From the IMG/VR virus record IMGVR_UViG_3300027708_000026, positions 80,908-144,907 of that record: DNA of 64,000 nucleotides; one strand, 5' to 3'. The notes beneath the pieces were generated by a model. It worked only from the letters and a program-made list of their open reading frames with translations, did no database searches and was not told the origin of the DNA. Source of the stretch: a virus. The translations under genes were made by a program, and so were the position numbers. Below are positions 1-55,087 of the stretch, one piece after another. How positions within the stretch are numbered: the first letter of the stretch is position 1; every line of letters starts with the position of its first letter.

Positions 1-2163
1 CTGACCGTAGCAGGTGGTGTTGGCATAGGCGGTGCTGTTTATATTGGGACATCTTCCTATATTGCTGGCGCACAGATCATTACCACTGCCACTATTGGAA
101 ATTACGCTAGCGGCGGCAGTACTAGTTCAAGTGGTATATCAATATACGATGAAGGTATTCAAATAGCATCGACAGTGACTGCTCTTAACTTTGTTGGAGA
201 CGGCGTTATAGCTACAACTTCAACTGCTGGAGCTATAAAGTTTGTTGGAAATACTCAATGGTTAAGTATTCCATCTGTCGCAGGATTAAATTTAGGCGAT
301 CCTAGTTACCCCGGCGCCCTAGACGGGCCAAACTTTACAATTGAATTTTGGATGTACGCCACTAGTTCTGCTACCGATGTGTACATAATGGATAAAGATG
401 GGATTGCAGGCCTATCATATGCTGAATACGGATTTAAGTTATCGACCTTAAGAGTAGTAACATTTTATGTTGGGCATGGTGATAATGCCGGCACCCAGTA
501 TGGTGGGGAGCAAAATTTCACAGTAGGCACAGTCGCATTGAATACCTGGTATCATGTGGCTGCAACACAATCGGCCACAAATCAAATTAAAACATTCCTT
601 AATGGCACATTAACTGGCACTACTACAAGAAATCAAAGGATGGTTGATGGCGGTAAAGCGTTATTAATAGGCTGGTGTCAAGATCAAGCAACTAATACTC
701 GATTTACTGGATATCTAACTAACATTCGAATTGTCAAAGGCACAGCACTTTATACGAATACCTTTCCATTGCCCGCCGCCGCACTGACCACAGTCACAAG
801 CACTGCACTTTTATTAAATGCCGCCAGTCCTGCATCTTTTCTCGCAGATGGTAGCACAAATAACGCCAGCATAACCAACAACGGAACAGTCTCGTTTGTC
901 AGCAGCTCGCCACTCTTTGCAGGTGTAACAGTTACTATACCAAGTTTTTCAGTATCGAGTGTTTCGTCAAATACACCAAGATATCTAACATTCGTCTCCA
1001 CTACCACTGGATCTGCAAGTGCAGAAACAACAGCTACCGGATTATTATATGTTGCAAATAGAGGTATAGCTATTGGCACAAGCACAATAACAGCATTAGC
1101 TGATCCAATGGGATTGGCCGGAGGTTATATTAGGGGCAAAGTTTTAGATCTCTACGGTGGTTTATATATTAGACAAGTGGGCTCTAGCATTATTTCGTCA
1201 AATTATCTGGGTCAAGGTGTTTACGACAATACCACTTACATTAATGCAGGCGGCACTAACAATAATTTTATTTGGCAGATAAATGGCGGCCAAAAGATGT
1301 ACCTATCAAATGCTGGATATTTTGGCATTGGGACATCTCCAATATCCGATTTACATTTACAAGGCTCACAATTTAGACACAATGATGTCAGCGGGTGGAA
1401 CACTTATACATTTACTGTATTACCAGGAGTGGTACAACTAGCATCGACTGCCAGTATTTCAATTCAGTCAGCTAATGTTTCCATCACTTCAACTGCATCA
1501 AGCACCGGTACTACAACAGGAGCATTACAAGTTGTGGGCGGCGTTGGCATTGGTGGAGATTTATATTTTGGTGGAATAATTTCTGGAGGTGGAGTTAGAA
1601 CAAGTACTACCACAACTACACCAAATCCTGCAAGCGTAGGAGACGTTTGGTATTATCAAGGCACTGATGTAGTTTATAGATACCAATATGATGGAACAAC
1701 CAGTACATGGGTAGATGTAACTGGACCTAATCTCATTGGATTGTATCAATATCAAGGCAATGCTGCATCAACTCCTGCCTATCTATCTGCTGCTTCAGGT
1801 AATAATTTTATAACACCATCAGTAGCATGGGCAGCAGCAGCACCTGTAGCATTAACTGATGCAGCGACAATACCTGTGGATTTAAGTGCGGGAATGAATT
1901 TTACCTGCCTGTTAACCAGCGGAGTTGGCACAACAAGAAAGTTAGATAATTTTGTAAATCCTAAACCAGGACAAACTGGATGGATAATGTTTACACAGGG
2001 TGCAACTGGAAACAATAATGTCACATTTGGTAATAACTGGCATTGGCCTCTAGGAACCACTGGAACATTTTCTACATCAACTGCCAACGCCGTAGATATT
2101 TTATTTTATACAGTTCTAACACCAACATACTATTTAGGTAATATGGCCAATAGGGTGGTATAA
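1..2163 (+). CDS. Tail-fibre/adhesin protein with LamG (concanavalin-like) domain; 5' end lies outside the window
   Basis: The frame is open from base 1 (LTVAGGVGIGGAVYIG...), upstream of the track start at 175. LamG motifs FTIEFW, WYHVA, FTGYLTNIRIVKG. TGALQVVGGVGIGG fibre repeat. Confidence 0.75.
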   Translation: MTVAGGVGIGGAVYIGTSSYIAGAQIITTATIGNYASGGSTSSSGISIYDEGIQIASTVTALNFVGDGVIATTSTAGAIKFVGNTQWLSIPSVAGLNLGDPSYPGALDGPNFTIEFWMYATSSATDVYIMDKDGIAGLSYAEYGFKLSTLRVVTFYVGHGDNAGTQYGGEQNFTVGTVALNTWYHVAATQSATNQIKTFLNGTLTGTTTRNQRMVDGGKALLIGWCQDQATNTRFTGYLTNIRIVKGTALYTNTFPLPAAALTTVTSTALLLNAASPASFLADGSTNNASITNNGTVSFVSSSPLFAGVTVTIPSFSVSSVSSNTPRYLTFVSTTTGSASAETTATGLLYVANRGIAIGTSTITALADPMGLAGGYIRGKVLDLYGGLYIRQVGSSIISSNYLGQGVYDNTTYINAGGTNNNFIWQINGGQKMYLSNAGYFGIGTSPISDLHLQGSQFRHNDVSGWNTYTFTVLPGVVQLASTASISIQSANVSITSTASSTGTTTGALQVVGGVGIGGDLYFGGIISGGGVRTSTTTTTPNPASVGDVWYYQGTDVVYRYQYDGTTSTWVDVTGPNLIGLYQYQGNAASTPAYLSAASGNNFITPSVAWAAAAPVALTDAATIPVDLSAGMNFTCLLTSGVGTTRKLDNFVNPKPGQTGWIMFTQGATGNNNVTFGNNWHWPLGTTGTFSTSTANAVDILFYTVLTPTYYLGNMANRVV

Positions 2164-2164
2164 C

Positions 2165-4147
2165 GTGTTTCCCGGAATCAATCCTAATGCAGTATCTGGT
2201 AGCAAGCGGCCCGGCGCTCCTTGTAGTCCAATTGTAACCTCTGTAGTATTCACTGCAACTAGTGCCACAGTCACAGTTTCTCCCCCGGATCATAATGGCG
2301 GAGCATATATTAGATCATATGTAGTCGTTAGCAATCCGGGAAATTTAATAGGAGCCGGTTCAAATCCTAATAATATCATAGTTTCAGGCCTGACTCCAAA
2401 TACAAATTATAATTTCACAGCATATGCGGTAAATGAAATTAGTTCAGGGACTGTTTCTATTCCTTCGGGAACAATAAAAACTTTGACTGATATACCGACA
2501 GCCCCAACAGGAATAATTGCTGCTGCCTCCGGCAGTACTAGTGCGACTGTAAGTTATACACAATCTTCTAGAGATAATGGTTTAACTATAACCTCATATA
2601 CTGCGGTCAGCACACCTGGAGGAATTACAGCATCAACCAGCACATCTGTATCAAGCACGATATATGTTACCGGACTAAATGTTACTACCGGATATACATT
2701 TCAAGTGTATGCAACTAACAGCAAAGGCAACAGCCCATATAGTGCCGCAAGCAATTCGATAACAACATTTGCAGTGGTGCCAAATGCACCAACTATCGGT
2801 ACAGCAAGTATTGTAAGTGGTAATCAAATCAGTGTAAGTTATACGCCGCCCGCATACAATGGCGGATCTGCAATCACATCGTATACTGCAATTAGCAACC
2901 CCGGTGGCGTCACAGCATCTGCTGCTTCTGGAAATATTGTGTTCAGTATCAGTAATCTAATCAAGGTAACTACATATACCTTTACGGTGTATGCAACAAA
3001 CGCCATTGGCAACAGTGCAGTCAGTGGGGCTAGTAATTCAGTAACAACCCCTGCAGCAGTGCCAGGAGCACCTACCATCTCATCGGTATCATTGACTGCT
3101 CCCACATCTATCACTGTGGCATATAATGCTCCGGCTGACGATGGTGGGGCAGCAATTACTTCTTATACCGCAATCAGCACACCTGGATCAATCTCGGCAA
3201 CAGCTGCTCGCGCTGGAGGGGGTACGATTGTGGTCACCGGACTGTCCTATAATACCAGCTATTATTTTAGGGTATATGCTACTAATAGTATTGGGGCAGG
3301 CGCAAACAGTTCAACATCAAGTTATGTAGCCACATGGGGAAGTGCAATATATGCTACGTCAGGTAAGAGTGATCTACCTAATACATACAGCTGGGTTGCT
3401 CCCCAGGGCGTTGCTTCAGTGAGCGTAGTTGCTGTGGGCGCAGGTGGTGGCGGCAGGCTGCGAATTGATGGAAATAGTTGGTTCTGCAATGTTGATCTTG
3501 TCTCGGGCAAAGGGCCAGCAACGGGTACCAGTTTAGGAAGTTCCCGTTATCAGGATAACGGCGGCACCTATGTTGGTGACGGCGGCGGCCGTGGCGGAGT
3601 CGGTGGCTCTTATACAATTAATGCCAATCTCTTCCACGAGGGAGCAGGTGGTGGCGCAGGCGGATATACTGCTGCTGGCGGAGCTGGTGCAAATGGGCGC
3701 AGCGGCTGCATCGGCGGCACTGGCTCTGACGCTGTCAGCGGAGGTGGCGGAGGTGGTGGAGGTGCAAATAACTATCCATCAGGCCGGAGAGATGGTGGCG
3801 GCGGCGTTGGATTATATGGACTGGGTCTCACCGGCGCCGCCGGCGGCAAGGGTGGTAGTGGCGGGGGAGATACATATGGTACTTGTCTACAGGGATGCGG
3901 TGGTAATTACGGAGGCGGTGGTGGAGCATCTTTTGGCAAATTCGGCTGCGGCGCCGGTGGGGGTGGTGGACTAGGTTGGAAAAATAATATTACAGTGACA
4001 CCGGGACAAACATACACAGTCCAAGTCGGCGCTCGGGGCGCGGACGGACGGTGCAGGGGCGGAGCCGGTGCAGTACGCATAGTGTGGCCTGCTTCGAGTT
4101 CTGGCGGAAATCGCGAATTCCCGTCAACCAACGTGTCAGCTCCATAA
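2165..4147 (+). CDS. Four FN3-like repeats followed by a Gly-rich (polyglycine) domain; putative virion adhesin/decoration protein
   Basis: Repeats of P.AP...SY....NGG..ITSYT..S.PG...GL...T.Y.F.VYATN..G. The C-terminal Gly-rich module ends VRIVWP...FPSTNV. GTG start. Confidence 0.7.
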   Translation: MFPGINPNAVSGSKRPGAPCSPIVTSVVFTATSATVTVSPPDHNGGAYIRSYVVVSNPGNLIGAGSNPNNIIVSGLTPNTNYNFTAYAVNEISSGTVSIPSGTIKTLTDIPTAPTGIIAAASGSTSATVSYTQSSRDNGLTITSYTAVSTPGGITASTSTSVSSTIYVTGLNVTTGYTFQVYATNSKGNSPYSAASNSITTFAVVPNAPTIGTASIVSGNQISVSYTPPAYNGGSAITSYTAISNPGGVTASAASGNIVFSISNLIKVTTYTFTVYATNAIGNSAVSGASNSVTTPAAVPGAPTISSVSLTAPTSITVAYNAPADDGGAAITSYTAISTPGSISATAARAGGGTIVVTGLSYNTSYYFRVYATNSIGAGANSSTSSYVATWGSAIYATSGKSDLPNTYSWVAPQGVASVSVVAVGAGGGGRLRIDGNSWFCNVDLVSGKGPATGTSLGSSRYQDNGGTYVGDGGGRGGVGGSYTINANLFHEGAGGGAGGYTAAGGAGANGRSGCIGGTGSDAVSGGGGGGGGANNYPSGRRDGGGGVGLYGLGLTGAAGGKGGSGGGDTYGTCLQGCGGNYGGGGGASFGKFGCGAGGGGGLGWKNNITVTPGQTYTVQVGARGADGRCRGGAGAVRIVWPASSSGGNREFPSTNVSAP

Positions 4148-4175
4148 TAAATAGTATGGTAATCAAAGGATTTAA

Positions 4176-7100
4176 ATGTCATTCCCAGTAAACCCAACCA
4201 GTGGACAGATCGCTGTAGTTAATAATATTGTATATTCTTATAACTCTTCAGGTACCGGTTATTGGACTAGAGTAGCAGCAAATACCAGTACACTTGCGAT
4301 CACTGTTGCATCTTTAAACATTGCAAATACATCTAGCAGCACGTCAACTACAACCGGAGCATTGATAGTTTCTGGCGGCGTGGGCATTGGTGGCGCCGTT
4401 TATATCGGAACATCTTCTTATATTGCTGGCGCACAGATCATTACCACTGCTACCATTGGATTGTATGCTGCGGCATCCTCAGCCAGTACTGGTACAACTA
4501 GCACATTCACTATTTTAAGTACAGCAAATAGTTTTAGTACCACTACAGGCGCATTGCAGGTGCGTGGCGGTGCAGGCATTGGCGGTAACTTATATGTCGG
4601 CGGAGCACTAAATGTTGTTGGAGTCAGCACATTAACTGGCAATTTATACACGTCAATCATTTATGATATTGCTGATACAAATTACCAAACATATCTATGG
4701 CCCACTGATACCAGTAAAATAGTCGGACTTTCAGCCAGGGGATCTGAGGTGGGCACCGGAAATGACACGCAGATTGGTTCTATATCAGTAACTCGAGGAG
4801 CAATTACTGCCGCGAATACTGCAACATTCTATGGGTTGTATAATAGGTCACTCAGTTATGCCGCAGGTATTGGTATAGATTTCAACGGCAATTTATGGTT
4901 TGGTAAAGTATCTGGTGGCGGTTCTGCATCCACTAGACAAAGCAATTTATTTTATAGTGATAATTCCGGCAACGTATATGCAGGCAATTCTTTTAGATCA
5001 AATGTATTTTATGCCAACAACACTGCATACTTTTTAGATTTTGCCACCACTGCTACTAAACATACTATACTATCAAATGCAGTCAGCACTGATTTGATTG
5101 GCTACGATCCTGCTATAGGAGTTTACATTGGCGGCACTGACAATAGGTACCTAACCAATGGTACGACATCGTCTGGCGGTCCACTATGGGTGATGACCGG
5201 CACCACTTATAATCTAATACATTCAGGAAATATTTCACAATATGCAGGAGCTTCAAGTACTACAACATTTACTAACCCTGTAATAATTAGATTAAACACT
5301 GTTGATACCATTGGCTCTACAGCTTCTACTCATTTAACATTAATTAACCCCAATACCGGCGCTGCCAGTTCTGGAATTTATTGGAGATTTGCCAATCAGT
5401 CTGAGATACGTGCTAGCCTGCGTGTGAATGACTCTGGCGATATTATACATAATTCTTTGAGCGGGAATTATAGATTCCAGCAAGATTCTGGTTCAAGTGC
5501 AACTAATTTTTTAAATTCTACAACATCATTTATGAGCGTCGATGGCGCAGGAAATGTATCGTTCCCTAAAAATATCACTGCTGCAAAATTAATCGACTAC
5601 GATGATAATACATATTATCTAGATCCTAACTCTACTTCAACTATCAATCAGTTAACAATGAAAGGATTGTTTACAGCCACTGTTGTAGGCACAGCTAATA
5701 CCTGGACTGATGTAGTTCTTGCCACTTCAAATCAAGGCGGAACATATATCACTGCCAATAGACCAACTGTAGCCACTGGGGATGTGGGATATAAATGGTC
5801 AACTGGAAACTCTGCAATTTGGACCAATTACATACCAGCAAACGATGCGTATACATTGACATGGGGATTGCTCGGCGTCAAACAGTTCACTATGAATAGT
5901 GCTGGCAACATGTCAACACAGGTTCAAGGAGCAGCAATAGGGTCTCCTCAATTTTATGATGCCAACAATTCCAGTTACTATATAAAACCTTCGGGATATT
6001 CATACTTAAACTCTTTAAACTTAGGCGGCTTGATCACCGGAATTAGCACAGGTACGGGCATACGTGTATTCAACAACGGTTCAAATAGTTTCACCAGCAC
6101 GGTATTCTGGGGAGTCCCAACGTTAAATTATTATTGGAACTGGCAAACCGACGCCGGCGGCAATGCAGCGTTATGGGGTTATCCATTTAACAATACTTCT
6201 ACAAGAGTATTAACAGTAACTCCATCAGGCAATTGGGGATTCAATCAATCGACATTACCTGGTGATGTTGACATGATCGGCGGTATATCAGTCACTGGTA
6301 CTGGAACTACGCAAGTCAGTGTTATGAAAGGTTCGACGTCCGGATTCTCATTGAGAGTTTCAGATACAGTCTTTGGTGATTTTTCACTTTATGATAAGGC
6401 CCAGGGTAGTTGGAAATTGGCAATCAATGCGGCCAGGGGATCGGTTGGTGTTAATGCCACTGCCAATGCCGCATATGGATTGAATGTCGGCGGTGATATT
6501 AACATCGGCGGCAACATTTATCAAAACGGATCTGCCCTTACCAACAATGTCAACACTGGCACATTTTCTGCAAATCAATATGCATGGTATGGAACTACTG
6601 GTGCAGGTGTTAGTCTTACACAAAATAATACATTTGAGACCAGTGCTATTTTTGGTGCGGATCATGTATTGGGTAGCGGATCTTTATATGATTTATTAGC
6701 ATGGAATCCACCGAACACCACTGAATATTATAATTTTAATGGATTTACATTTGCATGGATCTCTGATGCAACAGATGTTAAACCTCTGTTCAACGGACAA
6801 AACTCTCAGATATCAGTCAGTAATAACTATACGCTTACCGGCGCAACTAAACAAGGTGTTAGATTTACTTGGAGTACCTTTAGTAATAGATTCTGGGATG
6901 CATTATTGATCACTGGAAATACCGCAGGTGTAGCCTTAGATGTAACTATAGAAAGTTCTAATGACGGCGGGACAACCATCGTTACTCATGTTAGTCGAGC
7001 ATCTATCGGATCTACAGCAGTAAATGGTATGCACTACTTGAGAAATCAAGCAACCAATGCTAGTACTGGACAATGGTTTAGATTGACCATTAGAGAAACA

Positions 7101-10052
7101 ACTGCTGTCACGGCTAGTGTTAATTTATACAACATAAGTCTTCTAGGAACTAAAGGCGCTGCTAACAGATTACTCAACTGGGATAATCAAAGAAATATAA
7201 CTACCTACGGTAATTTAACAACCAATGTAGTTTATGATACAAATAATACTAGTTATTATCTCTCTCCTTCCAAGACTTCTAATCTGTTTACTGCAACACT
7301 GGCAGGTGACTTACTGACACAGGGACAGGGTAGATTTACTGGCTGGCAAAATAATGTCGCCACTGCCACTAGAACTGCTGGATTAGGCGTTGAAGTGGGA
7401 GTTAATGCAGGTGCTGCATCGATATCAGCGTACAATAGAACTTCTGGGTTATATGACACACTGGGGATTTACGGAAGTCCGATCAAAATAATTCCCCAAA
7501 CAACTGCTTCAGTATATATTGGCGGAACATGGTACGATAACGATGATCCTAGATATTATGTTAAACCTGCCACCGGCACCGTAATCACCAATTTGAAAGC
7601 ATTTGGATTGGTACAGGTTGTCAATACGGGCGGCAGCAGTTATAATGAGAATATTAGACTACCTAGGGCAGCCGATGGTATTGCCATGGTTTCGATGGCC
7701 ACCGATCTTTCTGGAACTGGAAATATTTTAGGCCAATGGAATATTGTTGTACAACCGACTACTGGCGGTGTTAATCAAGGTCAATTTAGCATACTCAACG
7801 GAAGTACAGCGTCATTCAGCATTGCCACTGCAACCAGCACAGCAACATTTGCGGCCAATGTGTATGCTCCAAAATATCTACAGGTAGGTGCAGATCAAAC
7901 CTTTTTTATACAACAGGGACAAACATCCTATTTAAATGCACTACAGGTTGGTCCAATTGGCGGGTTGTTTGATGTATTGACAAAAGGTCCGTTGGATGAT
8001 TACGCAAATACATTCACGTATGTGCATACTTCCTTAGGGGGAATTGGTGACCCTTTAAGAGATTTCAACACCGCAACATTGAGCTATGCATCTTATTCGG
8101 GATCTTTTTACGCAAATGCCAATACACCGGCATCGACTAATAACTGGTATACACTGTATCAAGCTGCCCATCGCGGAGGATCAGCTCCTAATGGTCCAGA
8201 TTATAGTAGTCAAATCGCACTGCCAATGACCAGTGCGGATGCTCGTGATTATACTAGAATGTTTTTTAGGGTAAAAAATAATACCTCTTGGAAATCTTGG
8301 GCAGAAGTTTTTACTGTGGGCGCAACAAATCAGTCACAGGGATATACAATATACGCTCAAACGCTTTATGATTATGCCGATACTCGTTACAGTATATCCC
8401 CTAGTGGAACGTCGACGCTGTTAAATCTAAAGACTTATGGGTCTATCTCTGGATACCTATCAGGTACACCTACCGCTGCTAGTTCTGGCGTCGTAGGCCC
8501 TCCCGATACTCGCGTGCCTGCACTACCTAGATTGGGATCTGCTGAATGGATATTCCCTAGCACTACAGATGCCAATATTGGAACAAGTATAGGTGATTCT
8601 GGGTTGCCGGCCGGAAATAGAACCGTATATAGAGAGGGCTTATATACTTGGAAAAGTGCAACTAGTGCATTGGGTCCCACTGGATCGACCACTCCGTACT
8701 ATGCAGCAGTTGGATTTGGCGCCGGCAGTAATGGTGCAGCAGAAATTGCAGCGTATCTGATATCCGGCGGTGCAGCCAACGATCAAGCAGTTGGACTACA
8801 CTTTAGGACCTTGCGTGATAATGGTGCTGCTCCTTGGTCCAAGTGGACACAAATATTAAATTCGACCACGCACGTATACGCAGCCAATTTAAATCAAAAT
8901 TTAAGAACCACTGACAGCCCAACATTTAGTAGCATAACATTAACCAATACTCCAACATTTAACCAAATAAAAGCTGGTTCTTACTGGATCACCGGTGGCG
9001 ACAATAATCAAGCCAAGTTCATAATGCCATGGAATGGCAATAATCAAGGCGGCATTGGTCCTTACTATGCTCCGGCCAACCCTCCAATAACAACTAGTCC
9101 TAGCGATCTTCAGAGTTTTAGATTTGATGAAGTATCATTATCTGGAACTTCACCTACTTATCAATCAGCATATCAAGGCAGTACAGCAGTTTGTATATAT
9201 TTAGGCGCTAAAAAGATATTTGGCTCGTCCGGTGCCGCCGCCTGGCACGATACTGTAACTGGACTGAATGATTCCAATTTCCTCCTCAGCCTCATAGCCT
9301 CCGGTGTTACTAGACTCGGTGCAGCAGAATTTAAAAACGGTATCACACTAACTGGCGATAATATAACCGCAAATCAAAGCGGCCGACTTAATCTCACACC
9401 GGGTCGCGGTATATTTGATGCGAGCTACTCATTTAATAAATCGACTGTAAACGTATCTTCATTCGGTACTGTTGCAACTTTTGGACCTGGTTTATTTGGT
9501 TGGGATGGGTACGTAATTGGCGGAAATGCTTCTGCATATGATGCATCTTTTATTAAGCAAAGTACAGGTCCAGAATTTGCTCTACGCGGCGGCGGTAGCC
9601 ATTGGGCGATATATGCAAATGGTGCGGATGCCGGCGGCATAAGACGGATATCTTTGAATTCTGATACTGGAGGATTGATAAATGGTTCCTATTCAGTATC
9701 TGTTGGAGGAACACTCTATTGTACGCAGAACATATACGCTTACTCAGATAGGCGTAAAAAAACTAATATTGCCACTATTGACAACGCCTTGGGTAAAGTG
9801 CTGCAACTTAGGGGAGTCTACTATAATAGAATTGACCCTGAACCTGAAGACATTGGTCGAAGAGATATAGGGGTTATCGCACAGGAAGTATTAGAAGTAT
9901 TGCCAGAAGCTGTAAAACATTCTGAGCACACTGATGAATACAGCGTTAACTACGGTAATATGGCAGGAATTTTCATCGAGGCTATAAAAGATCTTAAGAA
10001 AGAACTTGATGAATTAAAAGCAGAATTAAATATGCTCAAGGGCAATAAATAA
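4176..10052 (+). CDS. Long tail fibre (1958 aa) with C-terminal intramolecular chaperone (peptidase S74-type)
   Basis: C-terminal YSDRRKKTNI...LRGVYY...IGVIAQEV..VLPEAV...VNYG...IEAIKDL coiled coil. Internal YD..N..YY..P...S repeats and knob-like W..W motifs. Confidence 0.85.
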   Translation: MSFPVNPTSGQIAVVNNIVYSYNSSGTGYWTRVAANTSTLAITVASLNIANTSSSTSTTTGALIVSGGVGIGGAVYIGTSSYIAGAQIITTATIGLYAAASSASTGTTSTFTILSTANSFSTTTGALQVRGGAGIGGNLYVGGALNVVGVSTLTGNLYTSIIYDIADTNYQTYLWPTDTSKIVGLSARGSEVGTGNDTQIGSISVTRGAITAANTATFYGLYNRSLSYAAGIGIDFNGNLWFGKVSGGGSASTRQSNLFYSDNSGNVYAGNSFRSNVFYANNTAYFLDFATTATKHTILSNAVSTDLIGYDPAIGVYIGGTDNRYLTNGTTSSGGPLWVMTGTTYNLIHSGNISQYAGASSTTTFTNPVIIRLNTVDTIGSTASTHLTLINPNTGAASSGIYWRFANQSEIRASLRVNDSGDIIHNSLSGNYRFQQDSGSSATNFLNSTTSFMSVDGAGNVSFPKNITAAKLIDYDDNTYYLDPNSTSTINQLTMKGLFTATVVGTANTWTDVVLATSNQGGTYITANRPTVATGDVGYKWSTGNSAIWTNYIPANDAYTLTWGLLGVKQFTMNSAGNMSTQVQGAAIGSPQFYDANNSSYYIKPSGYSYLNSLNLGGLITGISTGTGIRVFNNGSNSFTSTVFWGVPTLNYYWNWQTDAGGNAALWGYPFNNTSTRVLTVTPSGNWGFNQSTLPGDVDMIGGISVTGTGTTQVSVMKGSTSGFSLRVSDTVFGDFSLYDKAQGSWKLAINAARGSVGVNATANAAYGLNVGGDINIGGNIYQNGSALTNNVNTGTFSANQYAWYGTTGAGVSLTQNNTFETSAIFGADHVLGSGSLYDLLAWNPPNTTEYYNFNGFTFAWISDATDVKPLFNGQNSQISVSNNYTLTGATKQGVRFTWSTFSNRFWDALLITGNTAGVALDVTIESSNDGGTTIVTHVSRASIGSTAVNGMHYLRNQATNASTGQWFRLTIRETTAVTASVNLYNISLLGTKGAANRLLNWDNQRNITTYGNLTTNVVYDTNNTSYYLSPSKTSNLFTATLAGDLLTQGQGRFTGWQNNVATATRTAGLGVEVGVNAGAASISAYNRTSGLYDTLGIYGSPIKIIPQTTASVYIGGTWYDNDDPRYYVKPATGTVITNLKAFGLVQVVNTGGSSYNENIRLPRAADGIAMVSMATDLSGTGNILGQWNIVVQPTTGGVNQGQFSILNGSTASFSIATATSTATFAANVYAPKYLQVGADQTFFIQQGQTSYLNALQVGPIGGLFDVLTKGPLDDYANTFTYVHTSLGGIGDPLRDFNTATLSYASYSGSFYANANTPASTNNWYTLYQAAHRGGSAPNGPDYSSQIALPMTSADARDYTRMFFRVKNNTSWKSWAEVFTVGATNQSQGYTIYAQTLYDYADTRYSISPSGTSTLLNLKTYGSISGYLSGTPTAASSGVVGPPDTRVPALPRLGSAEWIFPSTTDANIGTSIGDSGLPAGNRTVYREGLYTWKSATSALGPTGSTTPYYAAVGFGAGSNGAAEIAAYLISGGAANDQAVGLHFRTLRDNGAAPWSKWTQILNSTTHVYAANLNQNLRTTDSPTFSSITLTNTPTFNQIKAGSYWITGGDNNQAKFIMPWNGNNQGGIGPYYAPANPPITTSPSDLQSFRFDEVSLSGTSPTYQSAYQGSTAVCIYLGAKKIFGSSGAAAWHDTVTGLNDSNFLLSLIASGVTRLGAAEFKNGITLTGDNITANQSGRLNLTPGRGIFDASYSFNKSTVNVSSFGTVATFGPGLFGWDGYVIGGNASAYDASFIKQSTGPEFALRGGGSHWAIYANGADAGGIRRISLNSDTGGLINGSYSVSVGGTLYCTQNIYAYSDRRKKTNIATIDNALGKVLQLRGVYYNRIDPEPEDIGRRDIGVIAQEVLEVLPEAVKHSEHTDEYSVNYGNMAGIFIEAIKDLKKELDELKAELNMLKGNK

Positions 10053-10068
10053 AGTTAGGAGAATAACA

Positions 10069-12277: not shown

Positions 12278-12278
12278 A

Positions 12279-13493: not shown

Positions 13494-13501
13494 AGTACTT
13501 G

Positions 13502-13515
13502 TATTTAACTAAATA
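13502..13515. promoter_or_regulatory. Back-to-back TAAATA late-promoter-like motifs for the divergent neck genes
   Basis: TATTTA at 13502-13507 and TAAATA at 13510-13515 in a 27-bp gap, 8 and 5 nt from the two ATGs; resembles the T4 late promoter TATAAATA. Confidence 0.65.
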
Positions 13516-44245: not shown

Positions 44246-44305
44246 AATAATATTTACCGACAAACAATATCTGTTAAAGATAAACGAACGATAAATATTA
44301 TTTGT

Positions 44306-45234: not shown

Positions 45235-45235
45235 A

Positions 45236-45997: not shown

Positions 45998-46005
45998 ATG
46001 TTCCT

Positions 46006-46479: not shown

Positions 46480-46554
46480 AAATATGATCTCCTTTAATTA
46501 AGTGTATTTAATATTTCACCGGATCCTAGATAAAAGATCTAGGGTCGTTGTATT

Positions 46555-49500
46555 TTAGAGGTTGCTCGAAGGCCCTGTTAGTGTGCTTGGGAAAGTTCGT
46601 ATATTGCCCGGCCAGATGATTCGAACAGCGCCGCCGCCGGCTTGCGCAATCGTGGCCCCGCCGCCGCCTACTATGACTGCATAAGAAGTACCCGGGGATA
46701 CATTATAATTATTCAGGTATCCTAAGCCTCCACCGCCGCCACCAGAACTGGCTCGAGGCCCGTTGGAGCCGCTGCCCCCGCCATAAGCGCCACCCAATCT
46801 GTCGCTGTCCGATGCAGTGGCACCACCTGATCCGCCGCCGCCACCACTGCCAGTACCAGAATAGCTAGAAGTTCCGCCAGCACCGGAACTGCCCTGACCG
46901 TAAACACCAACGCCGCCGCCACCGCCGTGATTGAGCGTATATTTAAAGCCACCACCACCACCAGCTCCACCAGTTCCAGCTGCACCATCAGCAGCATATA
47001 CACCAGAACTATTTGATCCAGTACCACCAGCACCACCGGCGCCGCTATATCCACCAGCGCCACCACCACCACCAGAGCCAGCGCTATTGTTGCCACTACC
47101 ACCGGCACCACCATATCCGCCACCGGTACCTGCATAGTCGCCACCAGCCCCACCGGCGTAACAATATACATATCCAGTACCTCTTCCACCGCCACCACCT
47201 CTAACAAGACTGGAGTTAATAAAGTAACTTTGGGAGCCGCCGGCACCCTGCGTACATCCGGCTGCATCGCCTCCGCCACCACCAACTGCTACTACACTGA
47301 CTGATGTGACATTTGCTGGTGCGATCCAAGAGAATGTGCCAGGAGTAGTATACAAATTCTCCCCGCTAGCAACTAGGGTTGTAACCTGTGTAGTTATACT
47401 GGCAGTACTAATACCGTAGACACTATTAGCATAAACAGATACTGTATATGTAGTTCGGGGAGTTAATCCCAATATTAGTATAATTCCAACCGATGCGGTA
47501 GTTGCACTGATACTAGTGGTGCCAGTCGTTGCCACTGCTGTGTAACTGGTTATAGGAGTAATATAATAAGACGATGGAGGTGCTGTAAAGTTTACAGTAA
47601 TACCCGTGCCGCTAGAAGCCACTGCTGAACTTAGTATAGGTGCTCCTGGTACATATGTGTTACTTATTGTTAATGCGTCAGTATCGTAACCCTGGGCCAC
47701 ATTGGTACTTGGGAATGACCTAACCTGACCGGGCCATACAACACGAACTGCGCCCTTACCACCCGCTGTATTAGTATTGGCACCACCGGCACCTACAACT
47801 ACTGTATAAGAATCTCCTGCTGTGACTGATACGTTGTTTACATAGGCCAACGCGCCGCCGCCACCGCCTGGCATAGATCCGCCACTTATAAAGGATGCAC
47901 CGCCACCTCCCCCAAAGAATCCGCCAAATCCGCCTACATTTGAAACAAATCCATTACCATATCCCCCTATGGTGCCGTTACTTCCGCCAGTACCTGGTCC
48001 GGCAGATGCAACGCCACCAGTGCCGTTACCGCATTTCCCAAACAGTCCGACACCCCCGCCACCCCCGCCTACACCAGGCTGGCCGCGTCCACCACCACCA
48101 CCACCGCCAGTGGAAGCAGCTCCGTCATTACCTGCGCCACCACCACCTGCGCCGCCAGCAGCAGTATATCCACCTGCGCCACCGCCACCGCCACTCTGGC
48201 CGGAACAACCTGCGCCACCGCCACCGCCACCAGAAAACCCCGTACCAGCAATGACTGATCCGCCAGTTTGTCCAGAACCGCCGCCGGCTGATACGTGTAC
48301 AGTATTTGGCAATGCTGCCATCGTAAAACTACTGGCCCCGCCGTTGTTATTATTCCCATCTAATCCGCGCCCTGAACTTCCACCGCCAACGCTTATTACA
48401 CTGACTGCGGTAACATTTGCAGGTACAACCAAAGTATATGTTCCGGGAATCGTATATGCTATACTTGAGCTGGCCACATATGTAGTAGTCGATATACTGT
48501 TGCTGGATGTGCTATTGCCATATACACTAGTAGCATAAACAGATACCGTGTAATTAGTGAGTGGAGTTAATCCCGATATCAATACAGTTCCAGATGATGC
48601 GGTAGTTGTAGTGATACTAGTAGTTCCAGCGGTTGCTACTGCTGTATAACTGGTTATAGGGGTGATATAATAAGGTGATCCTGCTGAGAAATTAATCAAG
48701 ATCGATGTACCATTGGATGCCACTGCTGAATTTAATGTAGGCGGCCTTGGCACATATGTGCTACTTACTGTTAATGCGTCAGTATCGTAACCCTGGGCCA
48801 CATTGGTACTTGGGAATGATCTAAATTGTCCAGGCCATACTATGCGAACTCCTCCGTTACCGCCAGCATGGTCAGGGACTGTGCCGCCAACACCGACAAC
48901 CACTGTATAGGATGCCCCGGGTGTGACTGATATATTATTTGCATAAGCAAGACCGCCACCACCGCCAGCGGCTGCATTATTACCGGGTACATATGACCCG
49001 CCACCGCCACCGCCAAATAATCCACCAAAACCTCCGGTGCCGCTACCAGTGAGATTAAAGTTAGCATATCCGCCAGTAACTCCACAACTTCCGCCTGTAC
49101 CTGGACTTGGTGGCGTGGGCGAATAGACACCGCCCGCGCCGTTACCGCATTTTCCAAAAAGTCCGACACCTCCGCCGCCGCCGCCACCAGAATTTGCACT
49201 AGTAAGGCCACCGCCACCTCCACCACCGCCACCGCCGGTAGAAGCAGCTCCATTAGCACCATGTGCGCCGCCAGTGCCGCCAGCTGCTGTATATCCACCT
49301 GCACCGCCACCACCGCCTTGTTGGGCCGACGACGCCGCTGCCCCGCCAGCGCCGCCAGCAAATCCTGTACCTGCAATGACTGACCCCCCCGTTACTCCAG
49401 AACCACCACTAGCTGATACATGTACTGTATTTGGCAATGCCACCATTGTGAAACTGCTGGCCCCGCCGAGAGCAGTATTATTGCACCTAGACGTGCCCGA

Positions 49501-52065
49501 TGCGCCACCGCCTACTGCTACAACACTAACTGAGGTAACATTTGTGGGCACTACCCAACTATATGTTCCGGGAATTACATATGCTGCGCTGCCGCTGGCT
49601 ACAGCAGTGGTAGTTGATAGACTACTGCTGGATGTGCTATTGCCATATAAATTTGTAGCGTATACAGAGAATGAATAAGAGGTAACCGGAGTTAGTCCCC
49701 TTACGAGGATACTGCCTGACCCAGATGTAGAAGTCGTGCTACGGTAATTTCCATCCGAAGATATTGCAGTATAGCTAGTTATTACATCACCGCCGACATA
49801 AGTAGGTGCTGTATAGGTAATAGCGATCGCAGTGCCACTAGTAGCGGAAATTCCAGTTATCGTAGGTGCATTTGGAACAAATTGACTGCTAGTTGAGTTT
49901 GCGTAACAAACAACTGCTGTCGAAGGGAAAGATCTTATTTGTCCGGGCCATACTATACGTACCCCGCCGTTACCACCGGTACCGCCAACATAAACACCAG
50001 AGGAATCACCTGCGCCGCCCGCACCTACGACTACTGTATAACTTTGGGCCGCATTAACTGTATAGTTATTAACATATGCTAGGCCGCCGCCTGCCCCGCC
50101 TGCACCACTATTGTTTGATCCACTGACAGCACCTCCCCCGCCTCCTCCAAAAACACCACCATACCCTTTTGTTCCTACTTGTCTCCCAGGTGTTCCTCCA
50201 GACCCGCCACCGCCACTTGGATCACACACTGCACCGGTGCTACCGGTAACTCCGTTTGAGCCTAGACCAAACAGTCCAACTCCGCCACCGCCACCTTTTT
50301 CTCCAACAGCATTAATGGCACCGCCAGCACCAGAACCGCCGCAGCCTGCGGCACGGCCAGCACCGCCACCTGTACCAGTATAGCCGCCAGCACCGCCACC
50401 CCGAGCGCTGGCGTCTGCGCCGCCAGTGCCACCTGCAAATGCCACGGCGGTATTGCCTGTTCCTGATCTACCAGTACCACCGGTACCGCCTGTATAATTT
50501 GAAGTTCCTGGAAGACCGCCATATGCACGGACAACACATGTGGCTGCAAAATAACTCGAGCCGCCTGCGACGCCTGCATAACAACTTCCATTGACACTAT
50601 TGCCAAAAGTGCCACCTCCACCACCACCTACAGTGACTACACTGACTGAGGTAACTCCGGCAGGTGTAACCCAACTGTAAGTCCCGGGGAATTTATATAT
50701 ATTCGAACCCGGAGATGCATAGGTTGTGATAACAGACGATGTACTACTAACATCACCATCGCCTACGAGATTTGTTCCATATGCCTGGAATGTATAAGAA
50801 GTTAACGGACTTAAATTTGATGCAGTTACTGAGACATATACATCAAACGGTTGAACAGTACTAGTAGTCGCACCGCTAACTGTGACGCTACGTGCATAGT
50901 AACTGTTGTCTACTATGCTAGTGGCATTTTGTAAAGTTAACATAGTCACTGTGGTTGCCGAGATGATAGCACTGATGTTAGTGCTGTTAGTTTGTGTAGT
51001 TGACAACGGTGCAGTTGGTGGAGTAAAAGCGCCTGTATAAACTGCTAGATATCTAGCAATGCGTAGATTGCTTATATAACCATTGAACCAAGTCGTATTA
51101 TATCCAGGGTTTTCAGTACCGATGTACAAATATTGTTCGTACATGTCATTCGAATATGTTCCGGATACGGCACTGGTGCCATTTACATATAATGTAACTG
51201 TTGATCCGACGCGGACAGCAGCCACGTGATACCAAGCATTAGCAGCATATGTATTAGCAGATACCATGACCCCAGGCGAACTTTGCCCTGATGATGAGTA
51301 AAAAAATTCAAACTTACTGGCCACAGCTCTACCATAAGAAATCTTCATGCCGTGATCGCCACCGAGATTTTGTGTCCAGTTGCCCAGCATCGATCCGTTG
51401 GTGGTGGCAAGAGGATACACCCACATTTCAATGGTAAAATCTGTAGTGCCAACTAGGGGATTTGGGGTGGTTGAGAATGAAAGATAGGAGCTGCTGCCAT
51501 TGAAATATCCAGAGTAACTGGTAGTGGGCAGCGTGGTAGTGGTGCCTGCTAGTGCGCCATTGGCTAATACTGAATACGAGTATGCTGGAATGACACTGGT
51601 ACCGGGTAGAAACCTGACCAAAGCCGACGGCGTCGATGTGACATTAGTCGAAGTTATTATGGCCGATATCGATGTTGGTGCTGTAGGTACCGCATAACTG
51701 GATAACATGATAGGGGACGAGTATGTACCATAGACAACATTGCTGGCAGTACTGAGTAAACTGTTACCGGCAAAGTTGGTGGCATACATGTTGAACACAT
51801 AATATGTACTCGAGCTCAATCCTGGGATGACGACGGTGTTAGTGCTTACAGATACTGTGGCGGTAAATCCTGCAGGATTGCTGACTGCTGTATAAGTTAA
51901 TATAGGACCGCTGCCCGAATAATTTGGCGCAGTAAATTTCAAACTAACTGTGTTAGTGGCCGTAGTAGTCCACGTTGCAGTTAATGCCGTAGGAGCATCG
52001 GGCACATAGTTGGCCGTGAACCGCACAAATCCTGTTATTTTGACGCCGCCTTGAATTATTGTCAT
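46555..52065 (-). CDS. Giant FN3/LamG/Gly-rich adhesin-like protein (1836 aa; four Gly-rich modules)
   Basis: Repeated units FN3 + PG(T/S)YSW..P..VTSVSVV.VGGG ... VRI(V/I)WPG..R.FPST; one LamG domain. Confidence 0.75.
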   Translation of the reverse strand: MTIIQGGVKITGFVRFTANYVPDAPTALTATWTTTATNTVSLKFTAPNYSGSGPILTYTAVSNPAGFTATVSVSTNTVVIPGLSSSTYYVFNMYATNFAGNSLLSTASNVVYGTYSSPIMLSSYAVPTAPTSISAIITSTNVTSTPSALVRFLPGTSVIPAYSYSVLANGALAGTTTTLPTTSYSGYFNGSSSYLSFSTTPNPLVGTTDFTIEMWVYPLATTNGSMLGNWTQNLGGDHGMKISYGRAVASKFEFFYSSSGQSSPGVMVSANTYAANAWYHVAAVRVGSTVTLYVNGTSAVSGTYSNDMYEQYLYIGTENPGYNTTWFNGYISNLRIARYLAVYTGAFTPPTAPLSTTQTNSTNISAIISATTVTMLTLQNATSIVDNSYYARSVTVSGATTSTVQPFDVYVSVTASNLSPLTSYTFQAYGTNLVGDGDVSSTSSVITTYASPGSNIYKFPGTYSWVTPAGVTSVSVVTVGGGGGGTFGNSVNGSCYAGVAGGSSYFAATCVVRAYGGLPGTSNYTGGTGGTGRSGTGNTAVAFAGGTGGADASARGGGAGGYTGTGGGAGRAAGCGGSGAGGAINAVGEKGGGGGVGLFGLGSNGVTGSTGAVCDPSGGGGSGGTPGRQVGTKGYGGVFGGGGGGAVSGSNNSGAGGAGGGLAYVNNYTVNAAQSYTVVVGAGGAGDSSGVYVGGTGGNGGVRIVWPGQIRSFPSTAVVCYANSTSSQFVPNAPTITGISATSGTAIAITYTAPTYVGGDVITSYTAISSDGNYRSTTSTSGSGSILVRGLTPVTSYSFSVYATNLYGNSTSSSSLSTTTAVASGSAAYVIPGTYSWVVPTNVTSVSVVAVGGGASGTSRCNNTALGGASSFTMVALPNTVHVSASGGSGVTGGSVIAGTGFAGGAGGAAASSAQQGGGGGAGGYTAAGGTGGAHGANGAASTGGGGGGGGGGLTSANSGGGGGGGVGLFGKCGNGAGGVYSPTPPSPGTGGSCGVTGGYANFNLTGSGTGGFGGLFGGGGGGSYVPGNNAAAGGGGGLAYANNISVTPGASYTVVVGVGGTVPDHAGGNGGVRIVWPGQFRSFPSTNVAQGYDTDALTVSSTYVPRPPTLNSAVASNGTSILINFSAGSPYYITPITSYTAVATAGTTSITTTTASSGTVLISGLTPLTNYTVSVYATSVYGNSTSSNSISTTTYVASSSIAYTIPGTYTLVVPANVTAVSVISVGGGSSGRGLDGNNNNGGASSFTMAALPNTVHVSAGGGSGQTGGSVIAGTGFSGGGGGGAGCSGQSGGGGGAGGYTAAGGAGGGGAGNDGAASTGGGGGGGRGQPGVGGGGGGVGLFGKCGNGTGGVASAGPGTGGSNGTIGGYGNGFVSNVGGFGGFFGGGGGASFISGGSMPGGGGGALAYVNNVSVTAGDSYTVVVGAGGANTNTAGGKGAVRVVWPGQVRSFPSTNVAQGYDTDALTISNTYVPGAPILSSAVASSGTGITVNFTAPPSSYYITPITSYTAVATTGTTSISATTASVGIILILGLTPRTTYTVSVYANSVYGISTASITTQVTTLVASGENLYTTPGTFSWIAPANVTSVSVVAVGGGGGDAAGCTQGAGGSQSYFINSSLVRGGGGGRGTGYVYCYAGGAGGDYAGTGGGYGGAGGSGNNSAGSGGGGGAGGYSGAGGAGGTGSNSSGVYAADGAAGTGGAGGGGGFKYTLNHGGGGGVGVYGQGSSGAGGTSSYSGTGSGGGGGSGGATASDSDRLGGAYGGGSGSNGPRASSGGGGGGLGYLNNYNVSPGTSYAVIVGGGGATIAQAGGGAVRIIWPGNIRTFPSTLTGPSSNL
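47668..48819. repeat. Direct repeat from a tandem module duplication (period 1101 bp)
   Basis: TGTTAATGCGTCAGTATCGTAACCCTGGGCCACATTGGTACTTGGGAATGA is identical at 47668 and 48769; SSFTM.ALPNTVHVSA is also duplicated. Confidence 0.85.
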
Positions 52066-52099
52066 TTGCTTTATTTATTAGTTGATAAATCTCTAATTT

Positions 52100-55087
52100 C
52101 TAATTGAATAGTATTGTCCCTGACGCAGTGAATATGTAGTTTCTATAGCCACCTTCTACAACATAAGTAGCGGTATTTACAACTGCCGGATTAAATGAAG
52201 TTGGATAACGGAGGATCGCTATGCCAGATCCGCCAGCAGTACCGACCGATGAACCGCCTGCACTACCGCCCCCTCCGCCGCCCCCTCCGCCAGAATACTG
52301 TTTCGCCGCAGTTCCAAGATCAGTTGTAAATGCTCCATTGCCGCCTCCGCCAAATCCACCTATACCGGTGGCGGTGCCGCCACCACCTGCACCGCCACCT
52401 GCAAAATAAACTGCATTAGTGGCAGTAATGTATTGTCCCACACCTAATGTTAACGCCAGTGTTGTAGAAATTATAGTAGTAAATGTTCCAGTACCTCCAT
52501 TGCCTGGAACACCGGAATTGTGATTAGCACCAACGCCGCCAGCGCCACCACCGCCTCCACCAGATGAGCTAGTGTTGTTAGTGTAGCTAGAACCTGCACC
52601 GCCAGCAAATCCAACTCCGTAACCGTATGTGGCGAATTGCGTGCTAGTTCCGCCGACAGTATTATTGGAAGCGCCACCACCACCAGAACCGCCTGGAAGA
52701 CCGTTAAAGCTAGGAGACCAGCCTCCACCTCCGCCGCCGCCCACTGCTGCTCTCGTAACGGCACCTCCGATAAACGATGAAGTAGAACCAGCGTTCCCAG
52801 CTATAGTCGATGCCGATGCCGCAGCACCAGCACCAATTATAACTGAGTATAACACACCAGAAGATATAGTCTGACTACTGACGTAGACGAGACCGCCAGC
52901 GCCACCACCGCCTCCTCTTCCATGAGTGCTCGTTCCACCTCCACCTCCACCACCTCCGCCCACCAACAGAATTTCTATGGGAGGCATTGTGTTAAAAATT
53001 GTACTAGTAGATCCTACACTATCACCTAAAATACTAGTTGAATATATAGTCGCTGTGCTAGGCACTGATATACCAGGGAAAGTTAATATAGCACTACCCA
53101 AAGTGGTGTAAGCTGATGCTGAAATTCCGCCTGCTTGGCCAGTGAACAGGTAAGACTTAATTCCAGTTTGTGTAAATGCATCTTGAACATATGCGATCCC
53201 AGTCCATGTGTTATTTGAAAAATATGCTGTTGATGATGTAACTACTGGATAAGGGAAATTTGTATAGGCAGTAGTCGTTGTCAATGCTGAACAGGCTGCA
53301 ACCAATGTGCTGGGAAACTGTCTATCACTAGCTGGCCACACGATACGAACTGCACCGCCTCCACCTATTGAATTTGCACTACCACTTGGTGTGGGTGCCG
53401 CCCCTACGATAACTGTATATGATAGATTATATACCACTGTGACAGTGTTGGCATATACTAATGAACCACCGGCACCACCACCGCCTGCGCTGCCACCCCC
53501 ACCACCGCCGTATACTCCCCCGCCACCATATGTTCCCGCGGAGACTGTGCTAGTGCCCGCAGAGCCGCAAGATCCACTGCCTCCACCAATGCCAGAACTT
53601 CCACTGGTAGTGCCACCGGCACCACTGGCACCTAGACCAAAGATTCCTGTGCCACCCCCACCTGCTCCCAGACTACCGGTATACCCACCGCCACCGCCGC
53701 CGCCACCGAAGCCGTTAGTACCAGAGCTACATCTACCACCAATGCCGCTGCCAGGATATGTGCCCAATGTAGTAGTTACCGAACCGACATTAGTGATGGC
53801 TAGACTTCCACCATTGTCTACTATGGTAGCATTTTGCAGAGTTAGAAACGCAGTGGTAGCTGATGATGCAATAGCAGAGATATTAGTACTGGAAGATTGT
53901 GTAGTTGCTAACGGTAACACTGGCGGAACAAAGTTACCTGTATATACAGCTTGTCTAACCACACGAAGATTGGACATAGACCCTACTAATTTATAAGGAT
54001 CAAATGTTTGTCCTATATTCATAAGAGTTCTAGTGAAGTTTGTGGCATCGGCAAATTGCAATCTATTGATACCATTGATGTATATATTTAGGTTGCCAGC
54101 AGTTCTAACTACTGCCACATGATGCCACACACCAATGACCATGCTGGCATTGCTAGAAATAGTGCTACTGACGCTGCCGATCCTAACGATAAAGGTACCA
54201 GCGTTAAAGTAAACTCCAAAGCCAGCAGTATCACTTCCAGTAGTCCTAATATCAAACATGCCGGGGAATGAATTAGTGGTAAACGATCCAGGATTTACCC
54301 ACCATTCCACAGTAAAATCAGCGGTGCCTAAAGCAGATGGCAATGTTGCTTGTAATGCTTGACTACCACTTAGACTTGCGTAGTATAAAGAATTACCAAC
54401 ATAGCCGCCCGCACCGCCACCGCCGCCACCTGCGCTACTTGCGCAATTGGCTGCAACCCCGCCAGCATTACCACCATATACGACCACTGAGTTAGCTTGC
54501 CCTGTTCCGCCCTGACTATATCCTGGGAAATTAACAGTACCTGCACTATATCCGCTCCTGCCGCCCAGCGCCGAAGCTACACTGCCACTGACAAATGTAC
54601 TAGTTCCGCCAAAGCTGTTGTCTACTACCGTACCAGCACTGGATTTTCCTGACCCCCCTGCTCCAATGGCCACCACGCTGACTGATGTTACATTAGGATT
54701 GGCATTGATCCAGCTGTAGGTTCCTGGCACCGTATACGCTTGACTACCATAAGTATATGGCAATACAATAGGTGTCAATGTCTCTGTGCCCGGGCCAACT
54801 TCTGAATTAGCATATACTGAAAATCTATAGAAAGTTCCTGAACTCAATCCGCTGACTGTTATCGTTCCTGTACCGCTAGTGTTGAGTGAACCGGTGATGA
54901 GACCTGGATAGCTAACAGCTGTCACTGAAGTAACTGTGAAACTACCTCGATTAGTTGGACCTGTAAATAAGATAGTGGCTGTATTTAGAGTGGTCATCGT
55001 TGCTGATGTTATGACAACTGGACCCGGTGCCGACAATGAAGTCATAATAATACCACCAGAAAAATTGACACCGCCACTAATTATCAT
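52100..55087 (-). CDS. FN3/Gly-rich/LamG adhesin-like protein (probable start MIISGG at 55087)
   Basis: The ATG lies 1 nt after the upstream stop, and its N-terminus matches the paralogues; LamG and two Gly-rich module types. Confidence 0.75.
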   Translation of the reverse strand: MIISGGVNFSGGIIMTSLSAPGPVVITSATMTTLNTATILFTGPTNRGSFTVTSVTAVSYPGLITGSLNTSGTGTITVSGLSSGTFYRFSVYANSEVGPGTETLTPIVLPYTYGSQAYTVPGTYSWINANPNVTSVSVVAIGAGGSGKSSAGTVVDNSFGGTSTFVSGSVASALGGRSGYSAGTVNFPGYSQGGTGQANSVVVYGGNAGGVAANCASSAGGGGGGAGGYVGNSLYYASLSGSQALQATLPSALGTADFTVEWWVNPGSFTTNSFPGMFDIRTTGSDTAGFGVYFNAGTFIVRIGSVSSTISSNASMVIGVWHHVAVVRTAGNLNIYINGINRLQFADATNFTRTLMNIGQTFDPYKLVGSMSNLRVVRQAVYTGNFVPPVLPLATTQSSSTNISAIASSATTAFLTLQNATIVDNGGSLAITNVGSVTTTLGTYPGSGIGGRCSSGTNGFGGGGGGGGYTGSLGAGGGGTGIFGLGASGAGGTTSGSSGIGGGSGSCGSAGTSTVSAGTYGGGGVYGGGGGGSAGGGGAGGSLVYANTVTVVYNLSYTVIVGAAPTPSGSANSIGGGGAVRIVWPASDRQFPSTLVAACSALTTTTAYTNFPYPVVTSSTAYFSNNTWTGIAYVQDAFTQTGIKSYLFTGQAGGISASAYTTLGSAILTFPGISVPSTATIYSTSILGDSVGSTSTIFNTMPPIEILLVGGGGGGGGGTSTHGRGGGGGAGGLVYVSSQTISSGVLYSVIIGAGAAASASTIAGNAGSTSSFIGGAVTRAAVGGGGGGGWSPSFNGLPGGSGGGGASNNTVGGTSTQFATYGYGVGFAGGAGSSYTNNTSSSGGGGGGAGGVGANHNSGVPGNGGTGTFTTIISTTLALTLGVGQYITATNAVYFAGGGAGGGGTATGIGGFGGGGNGAFTTDLGTAAKQYSGGGGGGGGGSAGGSSVGTAGGSGIAILRYPTSFNPAVVNTATYVVEGGYRNYIFTASGTILFN

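Follow-up and report, generated by a model that had tools for sequence, protein, structure and literature searches.

Do the LamG domains of phage fibre-type proteins stand between other domains or inside them, and do they move as one portable unit? The question is raised by three LamG domains encoded in the right-hand 64 kb of a 144,907-base IMG/VR record (IMGVR_UViG_3300027708_000026) that comes from an uncultured freshwater jumbo phage; this stretch of 64,000 bases is called the window below. An earlier note, made from the window alone, had read each of the three domains as splitting a host domain, and all three as one lectin-like cassette that inserts repeatedly. We conclude with good confidence that in this jumbo myovirus a complete LamG domain is displayed by each of three fibre-type proteins, and that it is housed in a loop or turn of a host module that differs from protein to protein. 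That the domains are nested and not appended is proven for P0003 (site c), and is only probable for P0002 (site b) and for a tail fibre (site a).

Three complete LamG domains

A six-frame search of the whole record with the Pfam family Laminin_G_3 (PF13385, gathering cut-off 27.6 bits) gave exactly three matches, and these are the three places where the earlier note had put its LamG modules (231, 225 and 214 aa at its coordinates for a, b and c, respectively). When excised, all three cassettes score above the cut-off:

226..918, plus strand: LamG cassette (a), 231 aa; 60.2 bits excised, E 1.4e-17 in the six-frame search
50839..51525 (~50845-51519 in the earlier note), minus strand: LamG cassette (b), P0002 aa 181-409; 73.6 bits, with an AlphaFold model aligned by VIA-align
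53753..54394, minus strand: LamG cassette (c), 214 aa; 62.1 bits

A Pfam scan of the whole 720-aa fibre fragment (window 1-2163, plus strand) returned no family and missed cassette (a), probably through a Thr/Ser-rich composition that trips the HMMER bias filter.

The fold was modelled for cassette (b), by AlphaFold on P0002 aa 115-455, with an alignment of four orthologues and 34 cassette homologues. The cassette (model residues 67-295) has pLDDT values of 85-95, including its last 60 residues, which fall outside the Pfam model. Its superposition with solved LamG and pentraxin domains is sequential and runs from end to end, with Z 22.2 (VIA-align; rmsd 2.6, 203 residues) for the LamG domain of PAPP-A, Z 21.6 for 4dqa and Z 17.1 for serum amyloid P residues 5-204. 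This sequential match indicates that the ~215-230-aa unit is one complete LamG domain; each of the cassettes, of about 214-231 aa, is one complete domain of the LamG/pentraxin fold. The likeness to the LamG-like domain of PAPP-A and to the pentraxins (PDB 8d8o, 1sac, 4dqa) is one of fold, from first to last strand (Z 17-22), whereas identity is only 12-21%, and those proteins are eukaryotic or from Bacteroides and are not nested in the way seen here. For cassette (c) the model is of low confidence, no alignment having covered the LamG part, and its LamG match has a Z of about 10.6; the Foldseek matches of this model were LamG-type folds only, with none on the Gly-rich part. The columns conserved across 39 cassettes (E99, W164, H166, R221 and D272 among them) look like core residues.

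A circular permutation was also considered, in which the last ~55 residues (the "tail", ...LTLQNAT.VDN...) would be the N-terminal strands of the next LamG domain. The idea arose from tandem LamG arrays, in which the terminal copies stop at profile position ~171 and a tail-like segment stands ahead of the first copies. It was rejected for the window cassettes, because the model of core and tail together aligns sequentially to whole pentraxin/LamG domains.

A glycine-rich module split by LamG

The host of cassette (c) is P0003, in which the module around the cassette is found in two pieces:

52100..55087, minus strand: P0003, host gene of (c), with a probable ATG at 55087; FN3, split Gly-rich module with LamG, linker region, C-terminal Gly_rich_2
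54395..54751, minus strand: N-terminal piece of the Gly-rich module (P0003 aa 154-272); module profile hmm 3-110, 47.9 bits
53294..53752, minus strand: C-terminal piece of the Gly-rich module (P0003 aa 487-639); module profile hmm 102-269, 90.1 bits

The module profile (271 nodes) rests on six intact paralogous modules, taken from P0002 and P0004. Against P0003 it gives two collinear pieces, the first (hmm 3-110) at aa 154-274 and the second (hmm 102-269) at aa 481-639, and this split match puts the interruption just after GGAGGYVG, as the earlier note had read it.

The same site is empty in a related phage. The positional orthologue of P0003 in L067 (L067:1951-3915), which lies between P0004-like and P0002-like genes, has an unbroken module (hmm 4-269, 129.7 bits), and when it is aligned to P0003 it matches both flanks and leaves a clean gap at LamG. 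L067 has a scaffold gap of 10 N upstream of the site, not at it. A homologue lacking the insert, which the earlier note had made decisive for its claim, was thus found for (c). A second orthologue of P0003, at L066:6293-9694 (48% identity), has LamG at the same place, and there the LamG domain is itself interrupted by an insert of ~100 aa (about aa 330-440), giving three levels of nesting; Pfam sees this LamG in two stretches. Pfam returned no family for the inner insert of L066, and a by-eye guess of a SUEL/Gal-lectin domain was dropped, having no Pfam support at E up to 0.1. Nesting of LamG inside the Gly-rich module of P0003 is proven by these data. Among relatives the slot is empty (L067), filled by LamG (window) or filled by LamG with a second-order insert (L066), which shows that slot occupancy is polymorphic among related phages.

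The host module was modelled on P0003 aa 150-645 with 27 module homologues; one alignment that mixed LamG homologues and Gly-rich modules was misaligned by MAFFT and was discarded. The two module pieces have pLDDT values of 56-94 in the model. In a structure search the host module resembled the fibre protein gp24 of cyanophage Pam3 (7ypx_A; Z 9.6, rmsd 3.0, 152 residues, 20% identity), in an alignment that covers model range 3..477 and so spans the LamG insert, with both module pieces contributing. In Pam3 gp24, TNF-like strands run on into glycine-rich loops that form a lattice; receptor binding is proposed for the variable tips at the distal ends of these loops, and the domain resembles S16 gp38 and the ligand-binding region of ALK (PMC9608196). 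The (c) module and its ~270-aa paralogues have in common with gp24 (PDB 7YPX) a superposable fold and glycine-rich stretches of the GGGG.GG type. They differ in two respects: the loop tips of gp24 carry a few variable residues, whereas one loop of (c) holds a whole 214-aa LamG domain, and, unlike gp24, a protein of the window has up to four such modules, which follow FN3 repeats. Judging from its position after the GGGGGAGGY stretch, the LamG domain of (c) would stand at a distal loop tip. The Pfam family Gly_rich_2 (PF21722) matches a small module of P0002 with 19.4 bits, under its cut-off of 24.3.

A second LamG domain, probably in a split FN3

Cassette (b) lies in P0002, the gene next to P0003, where the earlier note had seen a repeat of the fibronectin type III family (FN3, PF00041) cut in two:

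46555..52065, minus strand: P0002, 1,836 aa, host gene of (b); FN3, split FN3 with LamG, then four FN3 + Gly-rich units
51526..51690, minus strand: N-half of the split FN3 (aa 126-180; strands A to C'); hhalign P 3.2e-4, columns 1-43; homologous to the N-part in P0255
50725..50838, minus strand: C-half of the split FN3 (aa 410-447; strands E to G); 27.4 bits with the clean profile of the phage's own FN3, hmm 56-88; hhalign 97.9%

With hhalign, a profile of eight orthologue sequences was compared with the profile of the phage's own FN3 repeats. The downstream flank is an unambiguous FN3 C-half (97.9%, template columns 57-89), and the upstream flank falls on template columns 1-43, in register, with a modest P of 3.2e-4. 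Joined, the two halves reach a score of 71.0 over columns 1-89, compared with 60.9 for the C-half alone. The C-terminal strands of the LamG domain itself show no likeness to FN3 (hhalign P 0.09).

Two other assignments were tried in this region. The first took the LamG tail as the missing FN3 half, since with the first FN3 profile the tail and C-half gave 61.8 bits, as against 46.5 for the N-half and C-half. That ranking was circular, the profile having been trained on sequences that included this very region; the difference was gone with the clean profile and was reversed by hhalign. The second took the N-half as another copy of the tail, and was rejected with a hhalign P of 0.011 over only 14 columns.

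A pairing test on the two halves scored 0.42, against 0.01 for the best control, which we rate as weak support. The mark of 0.42 is reached by 58 of 80 solved complexes and by 2 of 110 mismatched pairs, and in the range up to 0.60 it is reached by only 7 of the 80, together with both of the passing mismatches. The runs agree in at least 92% of contacts, with a partner pLDDT of at least 74, and the pass may reflect the likeness of the halves to the many solved FN3 structures.

The insert of (b) is kept in all seven orthologues, which have 53-84% identity to P0002. Two more distant orthologues, P0255 and P0243, have the N-terminus and the first FN3 in common with P0002 (45-48% identity), and in them the same second FN3 is split after strand B, at hmm position ~28, by a different insert of ~205 aa (aa about 167-372), with a C-part that scores 48.0 bits (hmm 29-88). 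A different insert in the same domain indicates that this FN3 has hosted inserts more than once. By eye the insert of P0255 and P0243 looks SPRY-like, having KWYTEV, a WFG..G.W stretch and an FNY..P.GF ending; this reading of the P0255 insert has no Pfam match. We conclude that cassette (b) is probably nested in FN3, in the loop between strands C' and E.

A third LamG domain, probably inside a tail-fibre motif

Cassette (a) lies on the other strand, in a tail fibre:

1..2163, plus strand: 3' third of the tail-fibre gene that hosts (a); in the whole record its open frame is ~2,095 aa long and begins 4,125 bases before the window
136..225, plus strand: N-part of the hairpin motif (ISIYDEG...LNFVGDGVIATTST); the motif is intact in the fibres of Mic1, Pam2 and S-SSM7
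919..942, plus strand: closing strand of the hairpin (AG-VTVTIP), corresponding to the.VTV.I that stands right behind GV.A...G in the intact motifs

The fibre carries collagen-like repeats, and its mosaic homologues carry PF01391 (collagen). The flanks of the cassette, DEG...LNFVGDGVIATTSTAG and VTVTIP, match a motif of roughly 40 aa that has a single occurrence in the record. In the fibres of Microcystis phage Mic1, Pseudanabaena phage Pam2 and Synechococcus phage S-SSM7 the motif is unbroken, with GV.A...G followed by.VTV.I. The cassette is placed exactly at the turn of this motif, and the closing strand begins within two residues of the cassette end. On this pattern, LamG is probably nested at the turn of the hairpin.

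Among the relatives of the fibre, P0134 (2,068 aa, of blank source and taken here as this phage's own call) and several homologues have neither the motif nor LamG, and their similarity picks up at ...SSNTPRYLTF, just behind cassette (a); P0134 lists no PF13385 entry. Other fibre relatives, P0131 and P0226, hold LamG elsewhere. The P0226 cassette, in a different fibre context, is the closest relative of cassette (a), at 49% identity.

Nested or serial arrangement

The alternative for (a) and (b) is a serial architecture, with LamG standing between domains. The upstream flank of (b) would then be a degenerate linker or FN3 remnant, VTVTIP would be a Thr/Val-rich linker, and only (c) would be nested. 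A number of results count against the picture of three nested and displayed LamG domains, and part of them are what a serial architecture would give. The clean HMMER FN3 profile on its own does not place the N-half of (b) (2.9 bits), AlphaFold has low confidence on both FN3 flanks of (b) (pLDDT only 26-55), and there is no empty allele of (b), as every orthologue carries the insert. The tblastn matches of the (a) motif are short, with E values of 0.2-4, and occur only in cyanophage fibre proteins, so that the case is one of pattern; moreover, no homologue of (a) has an intact motif at the same fibre position, the related fibres being without motif and without LamG. The likeness of the (c) module to gp24 is structural only (Z 9.6), as a profile of 28 modules found none of the PDB sequences at E up to 0.1. 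Finally, the location of the three proteins in the virion and ligand binding by their LamG domains are predicted only.

A serial architecture is at odds, on the other hand, with the hhalign placement of the (b) N-half on FN3 columns 1-43 (P 3.2e-4) and with the rise in score from 60.9 to 71.0 on joining the halves. The C-half of an FN3 (strands E to G) needs a partner in order to fold, and the sole other candidate for that part, the C-terminal strands of LamG, is unlike FN3. The pairing test adds its weak support, and in P0255 and P0243 the FN3 in question is split at another point and has a strong C-part. The hairpin of (a) has its closing strand at most two residues past the cassette, where the intact motifs have it. 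We therefore consider the serial architecture quite improbable and keep nesting as the preferred arrangement at both sites. What the earlier note had said of (b) is clear for the C-half and modest for the N-half, with the AlphaFold and HMMER results for the flanks standing against it. Its interruption of the DEG...VTVTIP motif at (a) agrees with the unbroken pattern in three cyanophages, but comes with the high E values and with no positional empty homologue.

Diverged domains, not copies of one cassette

The protein identity of the cassettes is 26% for a and b, 25% for a and c, and 38% for b and c. Similarity at the DNA level was found only between b and c, which lie in adjacent genes (70% over 168 nt, in the C-terminal third), and partial gene conversion between these two is possible. 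The three window cassettes do not group together in a tree that also includes 32 cassettes of other phages. At the junctions, shared words are no longer than in random window pairs, and no flanking repeats were found above background. The proposal of a single portable cassette that inserts repeatedly was not borne out: the DNA and protein alignments show diverged LamG domains and not copies of one cassette, the junctions have no more microhomology than random window pairs, and the insertion at (b) is old and is kept in seven orthologues.

The strongest form of that proposal is an active system, in which a dedicated or repeat-guided mechanism, still at work in this phage, would copy one LamG unit into permissive loops. 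Such a system would fit the boundaries of the unit, which are sharp and identical in at least eight host contexts, the variable occupancy of the slot among related phages, and the 70% nucleotide identity of b and c in adjacent genes. However, sharp boundaries are expected anyway, because only whole domains fold. In addition, the copies have identities of only 25-38% and form no cluster in the tree, neither flanking repeats nor junction microhomology rise above background, and (b) is vertically inherited in orthologues down to 53% identity. No reverse transcriptase (RVT_1) was found in the 145 kb record, which holds 41% of the genome. We give almost no credence to an active system.

The pattern is in keeping with separate recombination events, most of them old, after which the inserts were inherited, lost or replaced. 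Nesting would have arisen by rare in-frame recombination, at different times, and the inserted domains would then have been inherited vertically, with occasional loss, gain or replacement of the slot content between related phages. A host fold can accommodate a whole LamG domain in one of its loops provided that the first and last strands of the LamG domain are close together, as is generally the case for the LamG fold.

Complete LamG units are found elsewhere in IMG/VR phages, in tandem arrays, nested, at the N-terminus (L015) and as a stand-alone 231-aa ORF (L022). At 13 loci the unit lies between NGFYLPF and GNNWT.NN segments, and a regular-expression search of the fetched sequences for the empty NGFYLPF...GNNWT context found none. 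The units of the tandem Laminin_G_3 arrays (L017, L027, L002/L049) are of the same family and of similar length (~200-220 aa), with 33-40% identity to the window cassettes; those giant proteins string LamG in series, up to ~20, whereas the window has single units nested in other domains.

Giant ORFs with up to ~20 tandem LamG units occur in L017, L027, L002/L049, L043-L045 and others. In at least 14 such proteins the last LamG stops at profile position ~171 at the protein end, without its final two strands, and the first units of the arrays are preceded by a segment that resembles those two strands. These array ends could reflect the donation of strands from one unit to its neighbour, or else a permuted phase of the domains. 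In an unrelated phage contig (L014:3757-6012), a complete LamG domain lies inside the C-terminal end of Gly_rich_2, between ...YPDTYNAP... and the closing ...YTWTASGSVTF strand.

Predicted role in host binding

The genes of the window include those for a long tail sheath, for a sheath stabiliser like T4 gp15 and for a large terminase of the T4 type, and the phage is therefore a large myovirus. The completeness of the record is 41% by CheckV (~145 kb of an estimated 350 kb). In a megablast search, 20 kb of the window had no match among cultured phages; the nearest relatives are metagenomic contigs of 71-195 kb.

In such a virion the nested LamG domains would act as extra or replacement heads that bind the host surface, probably its glycans, and the content of the slots would thereby help to set what the phage attaches to. 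Receptor diversification, which the earlier note had proposed, is a reasonable reading of fold and context. It is also possible to accept the nesting and give the LamG domains another role, as structural spacers, as contacts between fibres or on the virion surface, or as weak adhesins for environmental polymers. The conserved cassette residues look like core residues, no ligand-binding residues were identified, and a shared fold shows no function. Nevertheless, the closest solved folds include many lectin and ligand-binding modules, the module interrupted at (c) has a solved counterpart that is proposed to bind the host via variable distal loop tips (PMC9608196), and carbohydrate-binding modules inserted in the loops of evolved Dits give host binding (PMC7291167). 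A role other than receptor binding thus appears rather unlikely to us.

The closest known design is that of the evolved Dits of siphophages, whose galectin domain has carbohydrate-binding modules nested in its loops; these modules bind the host (PMC7291167). Evolved Dits have one or two whole modules in the loops of the host domain, relatives exist with and without the insert, and the inserts add host binding. Site (c) follows this pattern in having a whole binding-type domain in a loop, as seen from the split profile, and a relative without the insert (L067). The window hosts are, however, a collagen-type fibre and FN3/Gly-rich proteins of a jumbo myovirus and not a siphophage Dit, so that they are not members of the evolved-Dit class. 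The inserts differ as well, with a LamG/pentraxin fold here and a BppA-type carbohydrate-binding module in evolved Dits, and so do the host domains, which are FN3, a TNF-like and glycine-rich module and a fibre hairpin here, compared with the galectin domain of Dit; binding by the window domains is a prediction.

With nesting as the preferred arrangement, a design of loop-nested binding modules that is known from dairy siphophages reaches jumbo myoviruses as well and gains three new host scaffolds, among them the type of glycine-rich receptor-binding module whose structure was solved at the fibre tip of cyanophage Pam3. The empty, filled and doubly filled alleles in close relatives amount to a natural experiment on what a fibre tip tolerates and on host recognition. 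For annotation, the results are a warning that nested domains can split their hosts below detection thresholds, and that whole-protein scans can miss the insert.

We also propose, very tentatively and as something that may well not hold, that the loops of FN3 and of TNF-like/glycine-rich modules are exchange hot-spots in this lineage of freshwater jumbo phages, where lectin-type domains are swapped between relatives. The domains seen in slots are LamG, a SPRY-like domain, a CBM4_9-like domain and the second-order insert inside LamG. If this were so, host range would evolve mainly via the contents of the slots, and the proteins would form a natural loop-display platform, broader than that of the evolved Dit.

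The CBM_4_9-like stretch was found in the P0004 orthologue at L064:4042-9513, at about aa 470-620, with 22.1 bits (under the cut-off of 25.9) and inside Gly_rich_2. The P0004 of the window has nothing at this place, which looks like another filled and empty slot.

A shared N-terminal motif

P0002, P0003 (from its probable ATG) and P0004, together with their orthologues, open with a similar motif of ~22 aa, M.II.GGV.I.G...FT.NY.P:

52000-52065, minus strand: shared N-terminal motif of P0002
55022-55087, minus strand: shared N-terminal motif of P0003
60318-60383, minus strand: shared N-terminal motif of P0004

The 1,036-aa ORF of P0003 was listed with a TTG start that overlaps the upstream gene (window 55085-55091, minus strand). 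The ATG at 55087, 1 base past the stop of the upstream gene, opens the conserved motif and is the likelier start of P0003. The motif in common to the three proteins may be a docking peptide.

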